Positions 1 to 6,982 of a stretch of 6,982 nucleotides of DNA are shown here, piece after piece (within the stretch, counting starts at the first letter, position 1; every line of letters begins with the position of its first letter). The translations under genes and the position numbers were made by a program. Under the pieces are notes generated by a model. The model ran no database searches. It worked only from the letters and a program-made list of their open reading frames with translations, and had not been told where the DNA came from. This stretch comes from a virus (Duplodnaviria > Heunggongvirae > Uroviricota > Caudoviricetes), in IMG/VR virus record IMGVR_UViG_2778261350_000001, positions 1 to 6,982 of that record; one strand, 5' to 3'.

Positions 1-106
1 GAGCGCGATCGATATCAGAACTGTAACCATTGCCGTTATGGCAATGGAATGAGGCGTTATTACCCACAGTTTCACGCGAGCACATCATGTAAAAACGGTT
101 GATCAC
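1..106 (-). CDS. Partial hypothetical protein; 5' end only, continues beyond window start
   Basis: GTG at 106-104 overlaps the upstream stop (GTGA) and sits 6 nt after GGAGG (113-117 on plus); an in-frame ATG-ATG pair at 88-83 is an alternative start. Frame stays open to position 1 (..[29 protein letters not shown]..). Not in the ORF track because it is truncated. Confidence 0.25.
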
Positions 107-270
107 CGGTTGCCTCCTTTGCGCCACATCGCATTCAGATATTTGTTGTCGTTAACAGAACCGAAACTATTTCTCTTAAGCAATTCCTCTCTCGATGGCA
201 TTGGCTTTACGCGTTGGCGAATAATCATTTCTGCCGGAAGAATGCCAGGATTGTATGCAAGACCTCTCAT
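103..270 (-). CDS. Hypothetical small protein (55 aa), translationally coupled to upstream gene
   Basis: ATG at 270-268 overlaps the TGA of the 267-548 gene (ATGA); GGAG lies 7-8 nt upstream. Hand translation: [55 protein letters not shown]. Below the ORF-track size cutoff; the plus-strand ORF 110-298 looks like its antisense shadow. Confidence 0.3.
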
Positions 271-548
271 GATTTACTCTCCACGAACTGGTCAATAGCC
301 ATGCTAAGTGACACACCTAAAGTCTCGATATGCTGCTGAATATCCTGTAGCGTCTGCTCCTGAGATAACAGTATTTCACGGTTGCATAACTCTTTAACCA
401 GATGCTCAAACTTGCTGTAATAACCGATACGACTTAGTGTTTCTTCCCCTGCATTCTCGCCTTCTTTGATAATTCCTCTTTCGCTAAGAATCAGGTCGTG
501 TTTGGTTCCGGTAATAACGTATTTTCCGAGGTCGATGTTTAGCTTCAT
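267..548 (-). CDS. Hypothetical phage early protein (93 aa)
   Basis: ORF track; GGAG about 9 nt upstream of the ATG at 548; same orientation and tight spacing with neighbouring PL-operon genes. No family recognised. Confidence 0.5.
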
Positions 549-564
549 TGTTAATTACTCCATG

Positions 565-879
565 TTAATTTATTCGTATGCCTGCTCTTTCTTCATCGAG
601 TTTTTTTAGCTTGTATCGCATAGCTCTTACTGAATAAATTGAGCGGCAGGTTGCAATTGCTATTTCTTCTGCGGAGAACTTACCGAAAAGTGATACTTCG
701 GCTCTTGTCCATCGCCTTCCACGAAGTCGGCTAACAATGTCAGCGCCAATCCTTGTTGCTTTCGCCATTACTGCTTTTTCAGTCCTTTCCAGTTTTTCAG
801 CGATAACTTCAACTGGCATTGTTGCCGCTACTTCGCGCAAGAAATCGACTTCCCATTTCTCCCATGGAGTCTTTTTCAT
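565..879 (-). CDS. Hypothetical protein with two tandem ~40-aa helix-turn-helix-like repeats (putative DNA-binding)
   Basis: ORF track. Internal repeat seen in translation: PWEKWEVDFLREVAATMPVEVIAEKLERTEKAVMAKATRIG and RWTRAEVSLFGKFSAEEIAIATCRSIYSVRAMRYKL share a W-x3-E-V-x-(F/L)..E-x-IA..R-x4-V/A pattern, reminiscent of GcrA/SANT-like HTH units. Weak SD. Confidence 0.55.
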   Translation of the reverse strand: MKKTPWEKWEVDFLREVAATMPVEVIAEKLERTEKAVMAKATRIGADIVSRLRGRRWTRAEVSLFGKFSAEEIAIATCRSIYSVRAMRYKLKKLDEERAGIRIN

Positions 880-890
880 AGGCGATACCG

Positions 891-1373
891 TTATTTGATA
901 AGAAGTGAAGGTTTCCCAACTTTGAGTTGAGCGCCGGGGATATTTATTCCTGCTTTTAGTTGGTGTTTGATTGCCAGTTTGTCGGCTTTTATTGTTGTTT
1001 CAAACTCAACGTATTCTGGAGGAAGGGCGCTTGAGTCGATTATTTCTACAATTTCTGACGGTTTGCGGATTGTTACCTGGTGAATACCTGCTCGAATATT
1101 TTTCTTGCCAACCATTTCAAGCGATGACGCTATATATGATTTGATGCTGTCAATCTTATTTTGAATTACTGCGGCTCGCTCATTCAGTGACTTTGCCTCT
1201 TCCTTGAGGCGTTCGGCATAACCAGATTCATTTTTAATGACGGAAAGAAGTTGTTCTATTTTATCGGTAAATTCTCCTTCCATGCCTTCTATTGTGTCAG
1301 CAATCATCTCTGGTTCTAAATCTGAATCCATCAGCTTTGCGTATTCATTGGCTATTTCATACAGTTTGCTCAC
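891..1373 (-). CDS. Gam-like / siphovirus Gp157-family protein (host-nuclease inhibitor-like)
   Basis: ORF track 891-1379 (frame opens with TTG). I place the start at GTG 1373-1371, 6 nt downstream of GGAGG. N-terminal coiled-coil-like region followed by a beta-rich C-terminal part; size and architecture resemble Mu Gam / Sipho_Gp157 proteins that sit next to RecT/Erf recombinases. Overlaps the recT 3' end. Confidence 0.55.
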   Translation of the reverse strand: MSKLYEIANEYAKLMDSDLEPEMIADTIEGMEGEFTDKIEQLLSVIKNESGYAERLKEEAKSLNERAAVIQNKIDSIKSYIASSLEMVGKKNIRAGIHQVTIRKPSEIVEIIDSSALPPEYVEFETTIKADKLAIKHQLKAGINIPGAQLKVGKPSLLIK

Positions 1374-2268
1374 TGGCAACCTCCAGTTTCGCTTTGCATT
1401 CTATGTAAATGGCTTGTACGTTCTGCTGCAATTTCATTCCAGATGTCAGGCGATATGCTTCTGCAAAATATCGCTTCAAATCATCCATGTTTTCTGCCTG
1501 AGCCATTTCATCGCAAAGAAGTTGTGCTTTATCCATTATTTCCTGCTGGCGTTTCCGTTCATCTTCGCGGATATCTTCCTCTGATTTGTGCGGCATAACT
1601 GGTTCAGTCCACACACCTTCTTCTTCGTTTAGTACGTGAATAGCACTATCAAGACGTGATGCCTTAGGCCAATACTTGCTTGCACGCTTTACGACCGTCT
1701 TTCGCGCCATCTCATTCCAGTGATTTACCCATGGTCCTTTATCGCTGAATGCTGCCTTGCTTGTTTTCCTTACAGCCTCAATTTCAGCCAGACTCATCTC
1801 TTCCGTTAGATAATCACCTGCTGGCGTCTTAACTGTGCAGTAAACGCCAACGATATCACCACGATCACCGAAGGCGTTGTATTTATGGGTTGGTGCTTTA
1901 TCAAGCCCGTTTGACTCATAGGTATCGTTAGCATGAACAAGTTTTGCCTGACCCCATGAGATAACACCAGACTCCATTGCAATATGGAGCAATCCCATAT
2001 AACTGATATCAAGGCAAACCATGCCGTCGCGCGGAACTAGATAAGCAAGTTTGCTGGCCGGGTTTAAGGTGATGCCTATCGCCGCAACATTGATGATGGC
2101 GTTCTGTGCGCTGGTTGGATTTGCCAGTGCTGTTTTAGCCAGGTAATCGTTTTTCTGGAAATACTGAATTGCAAACTGGCTTTCCTTAGCCCATGTCACC
2201 GTCTGTTCAGTCAATGCTCCGCAGAATAACTGCTCTTGCTGTTTAACGAATTCAACGATATTGCTCAT
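1357..2268 (-). CDS. recT: RecT-family single-strand annealing recombinase
   Basis: ORF track, 303 aa. Contains the GPWVNHWNEMARKTVVKRASKYWP segment matching the conserved RecT core (Rac RecT: GPWVTHWEEMAKKTAIRR..KYLP, from memory). Not Red-beta-like. ATG at 2268 overlaps the stop of the upstream gene (ATGA); GGAG 7 nt upstream. Confidence 0.85.
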   Translation of the reverse strand: MSNIVEFVKQQEQLFCGALTEQTVTWAKESQFAIQYFQKNDYLAKTALANPTSAQNAIINVAAIGITLNPASKLAYLVPRDGMVCLDISYMGLLHIAMESGVISWGQAKLVHANDTYESNGLDKAPTHKYNAFGDRGDIVGVYCTVKTPAGDYLTEEMSLAEIEAVRKTSKAAFSDKGPWVNHWNEMARKTVVKRASKYWPKASRLDSAIHVLNEEEGVWTEPVMPHKSEEDIREDERKRQQEIMDKAQLLCDEMAQAENMDDLKRYFAEAYRLTSGMKLQQNVQAIYIECKAKLEVASEQTV

Positions 2269-2576
2269 GCAGCTTCTCCATAAATATGTCTGCGTTTGAA
2301 TATTGCGAAGGCATATTCAGCCTTAACTCTTTCGGTTATTGCATCCCAGAACCATTCAGCGGCTTTTTCCTGATAGTTACAGTCATCATCTTCCAGCCAG
2401 TCGATAGCGTCCTTAGTGTGTTCATCTGGTTTATATGAGCGAAGCATTTCGCTTATTGGGTCGCAACGTTTGCAGAGGCGATCAACTTCACTGTTGATTC
2501 GCTCGTAATCTTCATCAGTAAAACTTGCGATTATTTGCGATATTTCACGCTTATCATTCAGAGTCAGAATCATCAT
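2265..2576 (-). CDS. Hypothetical acidic protein (about 102 aa)
   Basis: ORF track. Tandem ATG-ATG at 2576-2571 preceded by AGGAG (rc of 2582-2586); the second ATG has better spacing. Its stop overlaps the recT start. No family recognised. Confidence 0.55.
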   Translation of the reverse strand: MMILTLNDKREISQIIASFTDEDYERINSEVDRLCKRCDPISEMLRSYKPDEHTKDAIDWLEDDDCNYQEKAAEWFWDAITERVKAEYAFAIFKRRHIYGEAA

Positions 2577-2661
2577 CTTTCTCCTGTTCTTTGTGCTGAT
2601 TGAGCATTTTGTTCATCTGACGAATGAATTCTTCGTCTGACCATGTATCCGCAATGCTCAT
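2551..2661 (-). CDS. Hypothetical small ORF (36 aa, acidic C-terminus)
   Basis: ATG at 2661-2659 overlaps the TGA of the 2658-2822 ORF (ATGA). Hand translation: MSIADTWSDEEFIRQMNKMLNQHKEQEKDDDSDSE. Its 3' end overlaps the start of the 2265-2576 gene in another frame; weak SD. Could be a chance ORF. Confidence 0.2.
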
Positions 2662-2822
2662 TGCTTAACGACCTTAATCAGTTGAGTTACCTCAATGATG
2701 TCCTCGCATAAATCAGAGTACTGAAATGGGCCGCAGTTGTGAGAGTTAGTGCGTCTGGCGAAAGCCATTCTTCTAAGCTCTTTCAGGGCTTCTTCCAGTT
2801 CCTCGTAAGTTGGTTTTTTCAT
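2658..2822 (-). CDS. Hypothetical small protein (54 aa), coupled to cIII
   Basis: ATG at 2822-2820 overlaps the cIII TGA (ATGA). Hand translation: MKKPTYEELEEALKELRRMAFARRTNSHNCGPFQYSDLCEDIIEVTQLIKVVKQ. It occupies the slot where lambda has small genes after cIII. Below ORF-track cutoff. Confidence 0.35.
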   Translation of the reverse strand: MKKPTYEELEEALKELRRMAFARRTNSHNCGPFQYSDLCEDIIEVTQLIKVVKQ

Positions 2823-2989
2823 GGCTGTACCTTTTGATTCAGAAACTCAACAAGACGATCCAGCAAGCTCTTAACGCGAGGTTGTTTAAAGTCTGCTCCG
2901 GTTAAAATATTTTTTCGTGAATGCTGCACCGATAAAATTGGGTTGAAAGGGCGAACCGATGCCGCCCCTGCAATAGCGAACTGTTGCAT
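2819..2989 (-). CDS. cIII: cIII-like protein (FtsH inhibitor family), 56 aa
   Basis: Track ORF 2819-3094 contains the internal start MQQFAIAGAASVRPF... at 2989-2987 with AAGGAG 6 nt upstream. The N-terminus MQxFAIAG and the SLLDRL..FLNQ segment resemble lambda CIII (MQYAIAGW...SLLERI...ILNQ, from memory). The upstream leader also resembles the lambda cIII leader. The longer track N-terminus (MEIFFALQCEGFF..) is probably not translated. Confidence 0.6.
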   Translation of the reverse strand: MQQFAIAGAASVRPFNPILSVQHSRKNILTGADFKQPRVKSLLDRLVEFLNQKVQP

Positions 2990-3052
2990 AGGATGCTCCT
3001 TCTGTTTGATTGCATAACGAAAACGCCTCGAGTGAAGCGTTATTGGTATGCA

Positions 3053-3079
3053 TATAAAAAAGCCCTCACACTGGAGGGC
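3053..3079 (-). terminator. Rho-independent terminator candidate between the N-proximal insert and cIII
   Basis: Minus-strand transcript reads GCCCTC-CAGTGT-GAGGGC followed by TTTTTT (plus strand: A-run 3056-3061, stem arms 3062-3067 and 3074-3079). The U-tract is only on the minus strand, so it is orientation-specific for the leftward operon; presumably read through under N antitermination. Confidence 0.6.
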
Positions 3080-3172
3080 AAAGAAGATTTCCAATAATCA
3101 GAACAAGTCGGCTCCTGTTTAGTTACGAGCGACATTGCTCACATAGCAGACTCGTAAATCTGCTATAGGTGC

Positions 3173-3331
3173 TTATTCGCATCGCATGACAACATCAAAT
3201 TTTTCGAGATTACTTTGTCGCAACAATCCTTCTTCTACGCGATCAGCTTTTCTATAATTATCAAATTCGAAATGTTTAATTACTTCTTTCGTTTCTCGCT
3301 CTATAACTTCAACGATGTATTTCTTATTCAT
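3173..3331 (-). CDS. Hypothetical small protein (52 aa)
   Basis: ATG at 3331-3329 overlaps the TAA of the 3331-3600 gene (TAATG). Hand translation: MNKKYIVEVIERETKEVIKHFEFDNYRKADRVEEGLLRQSNLEKFDVVMRCE; stop at 3175-3173. Below ORF-track cutoff; the plus-strand ORF 3215-3442 is its antisense shadow. Confidence 0.35.
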   Translation of the reverse strand: MNKKYIVEVIERETKEVIKHFEFDNYRKADRVEEGLLRQSNLEKFDVVMRCE

Positions 3332-3600
3332 TATTCATCACCTATGGCTTTTTTGATAGCTTCGCGAGCCTTATTAACAGCTCCATACCATTCTGGATAT
3401 GTTGTCGTTGTTCTATTTTCGGCTTGCTTAAGTAATAACTGAAGTGCTTCAAGTAAATCCGGTGCAGCCATAGCTAATCTTCCATTTGCTAAGGCCTCTT
3501 CTGTTTCTTTACCGGATAGGGCCATTCCCGGGTGTGAAAATAAAATTAAGCCTGCAAAATTGGCTTCTCGCCAATTTTTCCTAGTACCTTTAAATTCCAT
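3331..3600 (-). CDS. Hypothetical protein (89 aa)
   Basis: ORF track; GAGG about 7 nt upstream of the ATG at 3600. No family recognised. Confidence 0.55.
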   Translation of the reverse strand: MEFKGTRKNWREANFAGLILFSHPGMALSGKETEEALANGRLAMAAPDLLEALQLLLKQAENRTTTTYPEWYGAVNKAREAIKKAIGDE

Positions 3601-3620
3601 GTTAGCCTCTGTTGTTTATG

Positions 3621-3648
3621 CCAAAAATAAAGGCCGACTATGCGGCCT
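3621..3648 (-). terminator. Terminator-like or attenuator hairpin at the 3' end of the 207-aa gene
   Basis: Minus-strand RNA: AGGCCG-CATAGT-CGGCCT followed by TTATTTTTGG (stem arms at plus 3631-3636 and 3643-3648; T-run is the rc of 3621-3630). Overlaps the TAG stop of the 3638-4261 gene. Confidence 0.35.
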
Positions 3649-4261
3649 CGGAAGGAAGTCCAATCATCTTATTCAAATCTTCTACCCGTAAAGCAGGAAG
3701 TGCTGCACTTGCTTTATCTGCTTCTTTTGGTAGCAACTCTTTGCTTTCAGGCCAAACTTCAATAAGTCGCTTAACTGTTGTGACTGAGTTCAAAGCAGCC
3801 CATACATTTGATTCGATATCCTTTTTCTTGGCTTCAAGTTTTTGTTGCAATGCGCAGATTTCATCAAACCTTTTTGTTATTTCGTGTTCTGCGCTAAACA
3901 TGCATTTATCTTTGGTCGGAGTAGGGAGCAATATATCTTCTCCGTTGCCGTCTTTCCCATATGAATGCCATCCAACCCTTCTGCCAGATACAGTCAGATA
4001 AATCGAAGTAGAACGAACATCGTATGAGTAAAATGGACATCCCAGTTTTTCAAGTTCTTCACTTATAGCTACTAACTTGGATGATAACTGATCCACTACC
4101 TCAGTTTTCTTTTTACCGCCAAACGCAATAACTCTGGCGTCAAGTGCAAGCTGGTTCATTAACTTTGTTACTTCTTCAAGTTCAGTGAAAACCCCAGACT
4201 TAATTAAAGCGTTACGAGCGATTTCCTCTTTCATTCTCGTAGTTAAACGGATTGATGACAT
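3638..4261 (-). CDS. Hypothetical protein (207 aa) immediately downstream of N; function unknown
   Basis: Track ORF 3638-4321 begins inside N. The likely start is ATG 4261-4259 (MSSIRLTTRMKEEIARN...), with GAGGA directly after the N stop codon and 6 nt before the ATG. Hydrophilic, no transmembrane-looking segments, no family recognised. Confidence 0.6.
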   Translation of the reverse strand: MSSIRLTTRMKEEIARNALIKSGVFTELEEVTKLMNQLALDARVIAFGGKKKTEVVDQLSSKLVAISEELEKLGCPFYSYDVRSTSIYLTVSGRRVGWHSYGKDGNGEDILLPTPTKDKCMFSAEHEITKRFDEICALQQKLEAKKKDIESNVWAALNSVTTVKRLIEVWPESKELLPKEADKASAALPALRVEDLNKMIGLPSEAA

Positions 4262-4272
4262 ATTAATTCCTC

Positions 4273-4599
4273 TCAAATAAGTGGTTTGCTGCCTAATTTC
4301 ATTTTCTGGCGACCAACACAAGTCACACCCATTTCACTGCGTGGCTTGCTGTACCATGTGCGCTGATTCTTGCGTTCAATACGTTGCAGGTTGCTTTCAA
4401 TCTGTTCGTGGTATTCAGCCAGCACTGTAAGGTCTATAGGATTCAGTGCGCTTTCTACTCGTGATTTCGGTTTGCGATTCAGCGAGAGAATAGGGCGGTT
4501 AACTGGCTTTGCGCTTACCCCAACCAACAGGGGATTTGCTGCTTTCCATTGAGCCTGTTTCTCTGCGCGACGTTCGCGGCGGCGTGTTTGTGCATCCAT
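4273..4599 (-). CDS. N: Antitermination protein N (lambda-like)
   Basis: ORF track, 108 aa. MDAQTRRRERRAEKQAQWKAANPLLVGVSAKPVNRPILSLNRKPKSRVESALNPIDLTVLAEYH... matches lambda N nearly residue for residue over about 85 aa, including the arginine-rich boxB-binding motif; the C-terminal ~25 aa diverge. GGAG upstream (..caggagaatccagATG). Confidence 0.95.
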   Translation of the reverse strand: MDAQTRRRERRAEKQAQWKAANPLLVGVSAKPVNRPILSLNRKPKSRVESALNPIDLTVLAEYHEQIESNLQRIERKNQRTWYSKPRSEMGVTCVGRQKMKLGSKPLI

Positions 4600-4797
4600 C
4601 TGGATTCTCCTGTCAGTTAGCTTTGGTGATTGGATGGCCGGCGCTGAACCCCGGCTTACTGGTTAGAGCGCCCGCACTACCAGTGACGCTGTCTTGAGGC
4701 GCAGATTGGTTACTGCTTGCCATGAGCGCTGTTTATACATTGGTCGAGCATCAGCCTGCTCATTCATCCAATCCCAAAGCCTTCTGCTTTGAATGCT

Positions 4798-4828
4798 GCC
4801 CTTCTTCAGGGCTTAATTTTTAAGAGCC
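4798..4828 (-). promoter_or_regulatory. nutL: nutL (boxB hairpin 4798-4812, boxA-like 4820-4828)
   Basis: On the minus strand: GGCTCTTAA-AAATTAA-GCCCTGAAGAAGGGC. boxB equals lambda nutL boxB (GCCCTGAAGAAGGGC); boxA differs from the lambda CGCTCTTAA by one base as far as I recall. Correctly placed between PL and N. Confidence 0.85.
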
Positions 4829-4860
4829 TCACCTTCATGGTGGTCAGTGCGTCCTGCTGA

Positions 4861-4896
4861 TGGCTTAAAATTACAAGAAAGATTGTATGTTGTAAA
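4861..4896 (-). promoter_or_regulatory. PL promoter (-35 TTTACA at 4891-4896, -10 TAATTT at 4868-4873, start near 4861)
   Basis: Minus-strand sequence downstream reads ATCAGCAGGACGCACTGACCACC, which matches the 5' end of the lambda pL transcript as I recall it. Hexamers have a 17-nt spacer; OL1 lies in the spacer and OL2 overlaps the -35. Confidence 0.7.
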
Positions 4897-4940
4897 CAAG
4901 AAATATTGTAAAAAGGGGCGTGAAAAACAAACTCCATTGT
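4873..4940. promoter_or_regulatory. OL operator cluster: three 14-bp 434-type repressor sites
   Basis: acaagaaagattgt (4873-4886), acaagaaatattgt (4896-4909), acaaactccattgt (4927-4940); all ACAA-N6-TTGT with dyad symmetry. Same consensus as the OR sites next to cI/cro. Confidence 0.8.
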
Positions 4941-4989
4941 TTTTAAATGAAAAATAGTTTGTTTTTGGTTATCGAGATTGAGGTGGGGA

Positions 4990-6342
<1,353 letters not shown>

Positions 6343-6350
6343 GACATTCC

Positions 6351-6382
6351 CGCTCTTACACATCCCAGCCCTGAAAAAGGGC
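6351..6382 (+). promoter_or_regulatory. nutR: nutR (boxA CGCTCTTAC 6351-6359, boxB GCCCTGAAAAAGGGC 6368-6382)
   Basis: Both elements match lambda nutR as I recall it, located just after the cro stop. A downstream 8-bp-stem palindrome at 6406-6427 lies in the region equivalent to lambda tR1. Confidence 0.85.
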
Positions 6383-6451
6383 ATCAAATTAAACCACACC
6401 TATGGTGTATGCATTTATTTGCATACATTCAATCAATTGTTATCTAAGGAA

Positions 6452-6484
6452 ATACTTACATATGCAACTTACAAGTACTCGCAA
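6452..6484 (-). promoter_or_regulatory. PRE-like CII-activated promoter candidate (antisense to the cro-cII junction)
   Basis: Minus strand reads TTGC(6484-6481)-gagtac-TTGT(6474-6471), then 13 nt, then AAGTAT (rc of 6452-6457). Same geometry as lambda PRE (TTGC-N6-TTGC, 13 nt, AAGTAT) inside the first cII codons, but the second repeat is TTGT. Assigned by positional analogy only. Confidence 0.4.
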
Positions 6485-6740
6485 GAAAGCGAATGCAATT
6501 ACAAGCAACATCCTAAATCGAATTGCTGTACGTGGTCAGCGAAAGGTAGCCGACGCGTTAGGGATTAATGAATCGCAAATTTCACGATGGAAAGACAGCT
6601 TCATCCCAAAAATGGGAATGCTTCTGGCTGTTCTTGAATGGGGTGTTGAAGACGAGGAGTTGGCGGAACTGGCTAAGAAAGTAGCCAGAATGCTGACAAA
6701 AGAAAAAGCCCCGAAGAACGGCGAATTCTTCGAGGCCTGA
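6462..6740 (+). CDS. cII: CII-family transcriptional activator (92 aa)
   Basis: Internal start of track ORF 6402-6740, with AAGGA upstream in a leader identical to the lambda cII leader. ..ESQISRWKDSFIPKMGMLLAVLEWGVEDEELAELAKKVARMLT aligns with lambda CII (..KSQISRWKRDWIPKFSMLLAVLEWGVVDDDMARLARQVAAILT). N- and C-termini diverge from lambda. Confidence 0.9.
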   Translation: MQLTSTRKKANAITSNILNRIAVRGQRKVADALGINESQISRWKDSFIPKMGMLLAVLEWGVEDEELAELAKKVARMLTKEKAPKNGEFFEA

Positions 6741-6774
6741 TGTAGAAAGACTGGATCAATCCACAGGAGTAATT

Positions 6775-6982
<208 letters not shown>

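Follow-up and report, generated by a model that had tools for sequence, protein, structure and literature searches.

Do start codons that overlap the preceding stop codon in a phage early operon mark genuine small genes, and would they couple the translation of neighbouring genes? The question is raised by a 6,982-nt stretch of Caudoviricetes DNA (IMG/VR virus record IMGVR_UViG_2778261350_000001, positions 1 to 6,982; the whole stretch is called the window below). The initial annotation of this DNA had described a chain of such junctions through a leftward operon and had proposed that they support several open reading frames (ORFs) of less than 60 aa. Judged by its sequence, the window is the early-left (pL) operon and immunity region of a mosaic lambdoid prophage. 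The chain is very probably the normal packing of such an operon under antitermination by N, together with the cI-hex pair of pRM, and the small ORFs in it are very probably real.

The junctions were collected with a script that recorded every case in which two ORFs, both at least 30 aa long, share bases between the stop codon of the first and the start codon of the second. Exactly the seven overlaps first described were recovered, all on the minus strand: GTGA at 106-103, ATGA at 270-267, 2268-2265, 2661-2658, 2822-2819 and 5394-5391, and TAATG at 3333-3329. The overlap is 4 nt at the six ATGA or GTGA junctions and 1 nt at TAATG. Dinucleotide-preserving shuffles gave a chance expectation of 1.97 +/- 1.48 junctions, with seven or more in 2/500, and the plus strand holds one such junction compared to seven on the minus strand. 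Among the 14 leftward junctions, nine overlap: these seven, one of 23 nt between a 35-aa and a 103-aa ORF (p35/p103) and one of 17 nt between the RecT and Gp157 genes. The remaining five comprise four gaps of 11-37 nt and one 183-nt gap that contains terminators. At every overlapped start a Shine-Dalgarno (SD) match lies within the upstream gene, with duplex energies between -3.7 and -11.6 kcal/mol; the other ATG/GTG triplets of the minus strand average -1.8 kcal/mol. The window presents the same class of junction as that studied by Huber et al. 2019 (PMC6728339), i.e. co-directional, with a -4 or -1 overlap and the SD inside the upstream gene. The overlap frequency of 9/14 is far above the ~15% of co-directional pairs that overlap in most prokaryotes (PMC6728339).

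The genes were mapped from annotated relatives (the E. coli E06 prophage, HK140, vB_EcoP-611R6 (hereafter 611R6), Sf6, HK97, P22, 434, WWCOL-236 and APC_JM3.2) and from family scans (Pfam, PHROG, NCBIfam). Where individual loci have to be told apart they are labelled L001 (E06), L002 (HK140), L003 (611R6), L015 (WWCOL-236), L019 (an Atlantibacter hermannii prophage) and L007-L011 (Citrobacter-type loci carrying a homologue of the 54-aa protein p54). The map is as follows.

1..106, minus strand: GTG-start gene (GTG at 106-104), 5' end only, continuing beyond the window.
103..270, minus strand: p55, a 55-aa DUF2737 protein of the HK97 gp38 / Sf6 gp23 / P22 orf56 family (Pfam PF10930, 1.5e-30; annotated in relatives).
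267..548, minus strand: p93, a 93-aa DUF5405 / Sf6 gp24-like protein (Pfam PF17399, 3.6e-5; phrog_154).
565..879, minus strand: p104, a 104-aa hypothetical protein (phrog_11492/323; 99-100% identity in L001-L003 and L015).
891..1373, minus strand: Siphovirus Gp157 family protein ('Mu Gam-like') with a GTG start (Pfam PF05565, 2.4e-37; PGAP length 483 nt in L001).
1357..2268, minus strand: RecT-family single-strand annealing protein, from the annotation of relatives.
2265..2576, minus strand: p103, a 103-aa protein (phrog_3486, 1.7e-59).
2554..2661, minus strand: p35, a 35-aa ORF (phrog_17766, 2e-13; N-terminus as in HK97 gp42.1 / Sf6 gp30).
2658..2822, minus strand: p54, a 54-aa protein in the kil slot (phrog_32687).
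2819..2989, minus strand: a 56-aa divergent cIII-like protein (phrog_550, 5.9e-19).
3022..3079, minus strand: a pair of terminator-like hairpins separating p52 from the cIII-like gene, at 3079-3062 (GCCCTCCAGTGTGAGGGC, then a T run) and at 3041-3022.
3173..3331, minus strand: p52, a 52-aa protein (phrog_6949, 3.2e-40).
3331..3600, minus strand: p89, an 89-aa protein (phrog_1273).
3638..4261, minus strand: Nmad5-family putative nucleotide-modification protein, named after the PGAP name of its homologues.
4273..4599, minus strand: lambda-type antiterminator N (99-100% identity to annotated N proteins).
4990-4600, minus strand: oL1-3, pL and nutL, annotated in the matching interval of the 434 record.
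4990..5394, minus strand: phage 434 hex, 134-aa form (97.8% identity to 434 CPT_434_50 over 134 aa).
5391..6023, minus strand: phage 434 cI repressor (99.5% identity to the 434 repressor).

The plus strand carries 434 cro and a cII-family gene. The window therefore contains 434 cI/hex/cro, a lambda-type N with nut sites and a RecT/Gp157 recombination module; its assignment to the leftward operon of a lambdoid phage agrees with the annotated relatives. Megablast of the window against phage and E. coli collections indicated a mosaic lambdoid prophage or phage, and no single piece covering at least 80% of the window was found among phage records and complete E. coli genomes.

The small ORFs that the overlaps had flagged were matched to known families: p55 belongs to Pfam DUF2737, and p54, p52 and p35 match PHROG families. 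Their sizes were correctly given as 55, 54 and 52 aa; the ORF reported with 36 aa has 35. p55 scored 105.3 bits against PF10930 (gathering cutoff 25), covering residues 1-51 of 53, and its dN/dS (nonsynonymous to synonymous substitution rates) was 0.15-0.28 in comparison with P22 orf56, BIS08P22 and Sf6 gp23. Between p54 and a 72%-identical Citrobacter homologue, the differences at the three codon positions were 11/8/34, with a synonymous difference proportion (pS) of 0.85 and a nonsynonymous one (pN) of 0.19. The pN/pS of p52 was 0.17 against Cronobacter and 0.09 against Atlantibacter, and that of the cIII-like gene was 0.19-0.27 (against HK140 and Atlantibacter). As a wrong-frame control, the other two reading frames of the alignments of diverged homologues were inspected and hold several stops. 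The conservation that the initial annotation had named as a check was borne out, with purifying selection on the 55-, 54- and 52-aa proteins and junctions that recur in relatives. Sequences identical to p55, p54, p52, p35 and the cIII-like ORF are present in public protein collections, on hundreds to more than 1000 contigs, under the deposited names hypothetical or DUF2737; the small ORFs thus already have catalogue entries, as proteins without an assigned function. On these comparisons, the DUF2737, p54, p52 and cIII-like genes are real conserved protein genes, which for the first three means that three of the four small ORFs flagged are well supported; p35 is plausibly a real gene, with less certainty.

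The arrangement of the window is that of known lambdoid early operons. In the pL operons of P22, HK97, Sf6 and HK140 the same order logic is followed, namely N, accessory genes, terminator, cIII, kil slot, small ORF, annealing protein, accessory recombination genes, DUF2737 and ea genes. Unlike these phages, the window combines imm434 with a lambda-type N, contains an Nmad5/p89/p52 island and has p54 where the others carry kil. The four operons are as rich in 4-nt and 1-nt overlaps as the window; in the early-left operon of P22, 11/17 junctions overlap, and this density is therefore the norm for the lambdoid group. Overlap frequencies far above the genome-typical value are usual for phage operons. 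The overlap pattern has long been known and belongs to the textbook picture of early operons in lambdoid phages; nothing in it is unexpected. It has little importance beyond annotation, in which a start/stop overlap reliably points to genuine genes of less than 60 aa that are sometimes missed by ORF-length cut-offs and PGAP; DUF2737, p54, p52 and p35 could be screened cheaply for toxicity or interactions.

How the packing might act in translation is suggested by the junctions themselves. Consecutive genes are joined such that a stop codon falls within the following start codon or a single base away from it, and the last codons of the upstream gene carry the SD of the downstream one. A ribosome ending one gene may re-initiate at the next, or may clear its initiation site, and such translational coupling is, we infer, the most likely behaviour of the overlapping pairs here. 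The block running from the cIII-like gene through p54, p35, p103 and RecT to Gp157 would then form one translational unit on a single mRNA. The cIII-like gene, which has its own strong SD (-8.0 kcal/mol) and is the first gene after the terminators, as is cIII in Sf6, HK97 and P22, would head this longest coupled block, through RecT and Gp157.

The cIII-like ORF matched the PHROG family (phrog_550) of CIII, an FtsH inhibitor, but gave no match to the Pfam PF02061 and NCBIfam CIII models and aligned with 434 CIII only at an N-terminal QFAIAG and a C-terminal L-x-x-LNQ. Its N-terminus reads MQQFAIAG, its middle is unlike lambda or 434 CIII, and its PGAP name is hypothetical. Further along the block, the RecT ATG overlaps the p103 stop as ATGA, a junction kept in five relatives and found as TGATG in Atlantibacter L019, and the Gp157 start (GTG at 1373) overlaps the RecT end by 17 nt behind a GGAGG SD of -10.0 kcal/mol. 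The p103-RecT-Gp157 module is present with 97-100% protein identity in HK140, mEpX1 and 611R6. Wherever p103 was found it lies directly upstream of RecT, with an overlap of 4 nt, or of 1 nt in L019 (3633-3926, 41% identity). The chain in the Atlantibacter prophage is cIII-like, 32-aa ORF, 97-aa ORF, RecT and Gp157.

At the distal end of the window, the p93 stop falls inside the ATGA of the DUF2737 gene, and the same junction is present in HK140, 611R6 and Sf6. The GTG gene in turn overlaps the DUF2737 stop as GTGA and has the strongest SD of the operon (AAGGAGG, -11.6 kcal/mol). Its homologue in 611R6 (CDS 960-1604 of L003) lies behind a different, gp37-like gene, and the GTG gene carries the same AAAGGAGGCAACC-GTGA both here, behind DUF2737, and in 611R6 (L003 1600-1625). 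In the window (103-125), the ribosome-binding site of the GTG gene is formed by the final five DUF2737 codons (KGGNR), and with most other DUF2737 homologues the alignment ends at residue 52. The recurrence of the same sequence behind two different genes indicates that the ribosome-binding site of the downstream gene encodes the final residues of the upstream protein. Since 611R6 has the same ribosome-binding site, start and stop behind another upstream gene, a module swap need not break coupling at 106. In mosaic phages, a downstream gene can thus turn up, together with its ribosome-binding site and start, behind more than one upstream gene, with the stop/start overlap kept.

A comparable junction is that of p89 and p52, where the p52 ATG overlaps the p89 stop (TAATG). 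The spacing of p52 to its upstream gene is -4, -1 or 0 nt, with four different upstream genes, and in L015 and L016 p89 alleles of ~50% identity lie upstream of a 98-100% identical p52. In these two loci a mosaic joint falls exactly at the p89/p52 junction. The terminator-like hairpins would split the leftward transcript into blocks: one at 3649-3630 follows the Nmad5-family gene. The p89-p52 pair is bracketed by such hairpins, with 3649-3630 upstream and 3079-3062 and 3041-3022 downstream. An Rfam scan of the whole window gave nothing above noise. p52 is predicted to form a compact beta-beta-alpha-beta domain (AF2 pLDDT 94), and a fold search of its model in the PDB returned no match at E <= 0.001.

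p35 starts at an ATG that shares bases with the p54 stop, and it runs 23 nt into p103 at its other end. A counterpart, 32-83 aa long and starting in ATGA, was present in 11/11 relative loci read. Across the relatives and the window this start lies behind three unrelated genes: a lambda-type kil (E06, Sf6, HK97), the cIII-like gene (HK140, 611R6, WWCOL-236, SPN9CC, SEN22, Atlantibacter) or p54 (this window, BIS08P22). The first ~50 nt of p35 (2612-2661) are 86-100% identical across many lambdoid phages (HK97, Sf6, mEp and Stx phages) with unrelated flanks. This segment behaves as a module-boundary linker that joins the kil/cIII block to Erf-, RecT- or ATPase-type recombination modules. p35 lacks PGAP/RefSeq annotation in E06, HK140 and WWCOL-236, as does p52 in WWCOL-236, and the ORFs are intact there. 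A possible RNA or DNA element, the 6-bp inverted repeat around an EcoRI site in the conserved 5' part of p35, was rejected, as it is lost in Atlantibacter with the peptide motif kept.

P22 Arf, an accessory recombination function that assists Erf through an unknown mechanism (PMC12315714), was compared with p35. Both are small acidic ORFs that precede a recombination module, Arf lying before erf, and share SDEEFI near the N-terminus; in this window, p103 intervenes between p35 and RecT. BLASTP of p35 against P22 Arf gave 6/12 identities (E = 0.005 for a single comparison), and profile comparison with hhalign gave 30% probability over 21 columns. Neither p35 nor its relatives (four family members) matched the Arf model PF17585 at E <= 10, compared to 1.9e-35 for P22 Arf itself. 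The identification of p35 as Arf is not established, given the failure against PF17585 and the hhalign probability of only 30%.

p54 occupies the kil slot of HK97, Sf6 and 434, with the cIII-like gene upstream and the recombination genes downstream of it. It is predicted to form a helical hairpin (AF2 pLDDT 80) with an invariant NSHNCGPFQY-DLCE loop. Its upstream overlap is 4 nt in the five Citrobacter-type loci (L007-L011) and in BIS08P22, and its downstream overlap is 4 nt in L007-L010. The 72%-identical homologues mostly lie just upstream of Ead/Ea22-like genes (L007-L011); some homologues follow replication genes in rightward operons, and others are found in early-left operons toward integrase. 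Searches of p54 against Pfam and NCBIfam, both with Kil models, returned no match. BLASTP gave no alignment with 434 Kil and E = 0.73 with P22 Kil, whose Pfam family (DUF5444) p54 did not match. A fold search of its model in BFVD gave no match at E <= 0.001, sequence-profile searches of the PDB with p54 and p52 gave nothing below E = 0.28, and the PADLOC defence models gave only a marginal, implausible match (E = 0.0087, to a methyltransferase model).

Two explanations other than coupled, protein-coding genes bear on the overlaps. We consider it unlikely that they are mere compaction or a by-product of mosaic recombination, with each gene initiating independently on its own SD and no functional coupling. 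Independent initiation could suffice, as every overlapped start has a recognisable SD of its own, and this counts against coupling. The ATGA of DUF2737 is likewise that gene's own first two codons, which serve as a stop only where an Sf6 gp24-like gene lies upstream and are present even where no upstream ORF ends there (L001, L004, L006, L013 and L015, with a 10-16 nt gap). Yet p54 and p52, whose SDs are the weakest (-3.9 and -3.7 kcal/mol), always keep a zero or negative spacing to the upstream gene, and strict coupling was found in 13/14 tested pairs of this kind (Huber et al. 2019, PMC6728339). Doubt of a different kind attaches to p35, which may, with a somewhat greater though still minor likelihood, be no functional protein: it could be a ribosome-relay ORF from the kil/cIII block to the p103 start, or a conserved recombination linker that stays open. 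Several features weigh against p35 as a protein gene and fit this explanation. Only its first ~28 residues are conserved, and its length (32-83 aa) and C-terminus vary with the downstream module; the SD of p103 (AGGAG) is made up of its conserved EQEK codons; substitutions in its N-terminus among close relatives are few and nearly all nonsynonymous; no Pfam or NCBIfam family was found for it, and it is unannotated by PGAP/RefSeq in most relatives. The near-identity of its 5' ~50 nt among phages with unrelated flanks fits a linker as well. Against this explanation stands the Atlantibacter hermannii prophage, where a 32-aa ORF at the p35 position keeps the core W-S-D-x-x-F-I-R-x-M despite synonymous changes in the F, R, L and K codons, loss of the small inverted repeat and a p103 of only 41% identity, as does the resemblance of this motif to the N-terminus of P22 Arf, which holds the same place directly before the annealing protein.

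Coupled translation of genuine small genes remains our preferred reading, and the question of what p54 does is separate from it. The initial annotation had likened the small proteins to Kil-type division inhibitors and other host-takeover factors. Host takeover is a generic possibility for such ORFs; the Kil-like suggestion is not supported for any of them. p54 resembles lambda/434 Kil and P22 Kil in size and in map position from cIII to the recombination genes, but shares no sequence similarity or family with them, and its homologues also occupy other operon positions; its identity as Kil is rejected on the Pfam, NCBIfam and BLASTP results. That p54 is instead a functional analogue of Kil, a small inhibitor of host division or other host-takeover factor, is highly improbable in our view: its position in place of kil, and a small predicted helical hairpin under purifying selection, would suit such a role, yet its homologues adjoin Ead/Ea22-like genes, follow replication genes or sit far down early-left operons, away from the kil slot, and no fold, PDB or defence-library match was found. 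Also improbable, to a slightly lesser degree, is that p54 is an uncharacterised self-contained cassette, a new kind of host- or phage-directed effector, or, relatedly, that p35 is an Arf-like peptide. If true, the cassette would move between unrelated operon positions of enterobacterial prophages, keep its upstream overlap and have displaced kil here, and its product would be a helical hairpin with an invariant H-x-C...C loop; p35 would be a peptide common to Erf-, RecT- and ATPase-type recombination modules.

The remaining overlap, at 5391-5394, is the phage 434 cI/hex junction, where the hex ATG overlaps the cI stop (ATGA). cI-hex is a pRM pair with the same close packing, and nothing material differs from the phage 434 cI-hex operon. 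The published Hex ORF has 158 aa and an upstream ATG (PMC3564112); the 434 genome annotation uses the ATGA start for hex (134 aa). In the window, the 158-aa ORF (4990-5466, minus strand) begins within cI, 72 nt before the ATGA start. The fragment reported as 'active', sHex, starts at Glu43 of the 158-aa ORF (PMC3564112). This Glu43 is the residue right after ...ASANS, in agreement with the 434 annotators' note that the published start is wrong. The N-terminus of the 134-aa form resembles a signal peptide, and such a start may raise the question of Hex export.

Three minor observations concern the neighbouring genes. p103 is a candidate partner of RecT in its recombination module; a Genome Research 2025 survey lists that module without a nuclease. 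The Nmad5-family gene (3638-4261) starts 11 nt after N and has homologues in many E. coli prophages. A strong terminator-like hairpin at 6706-6738 (minus strand) is antisense to the end of the cII-family gene, which is the position of the oop RNA terminator in lambda, 434 and P22.

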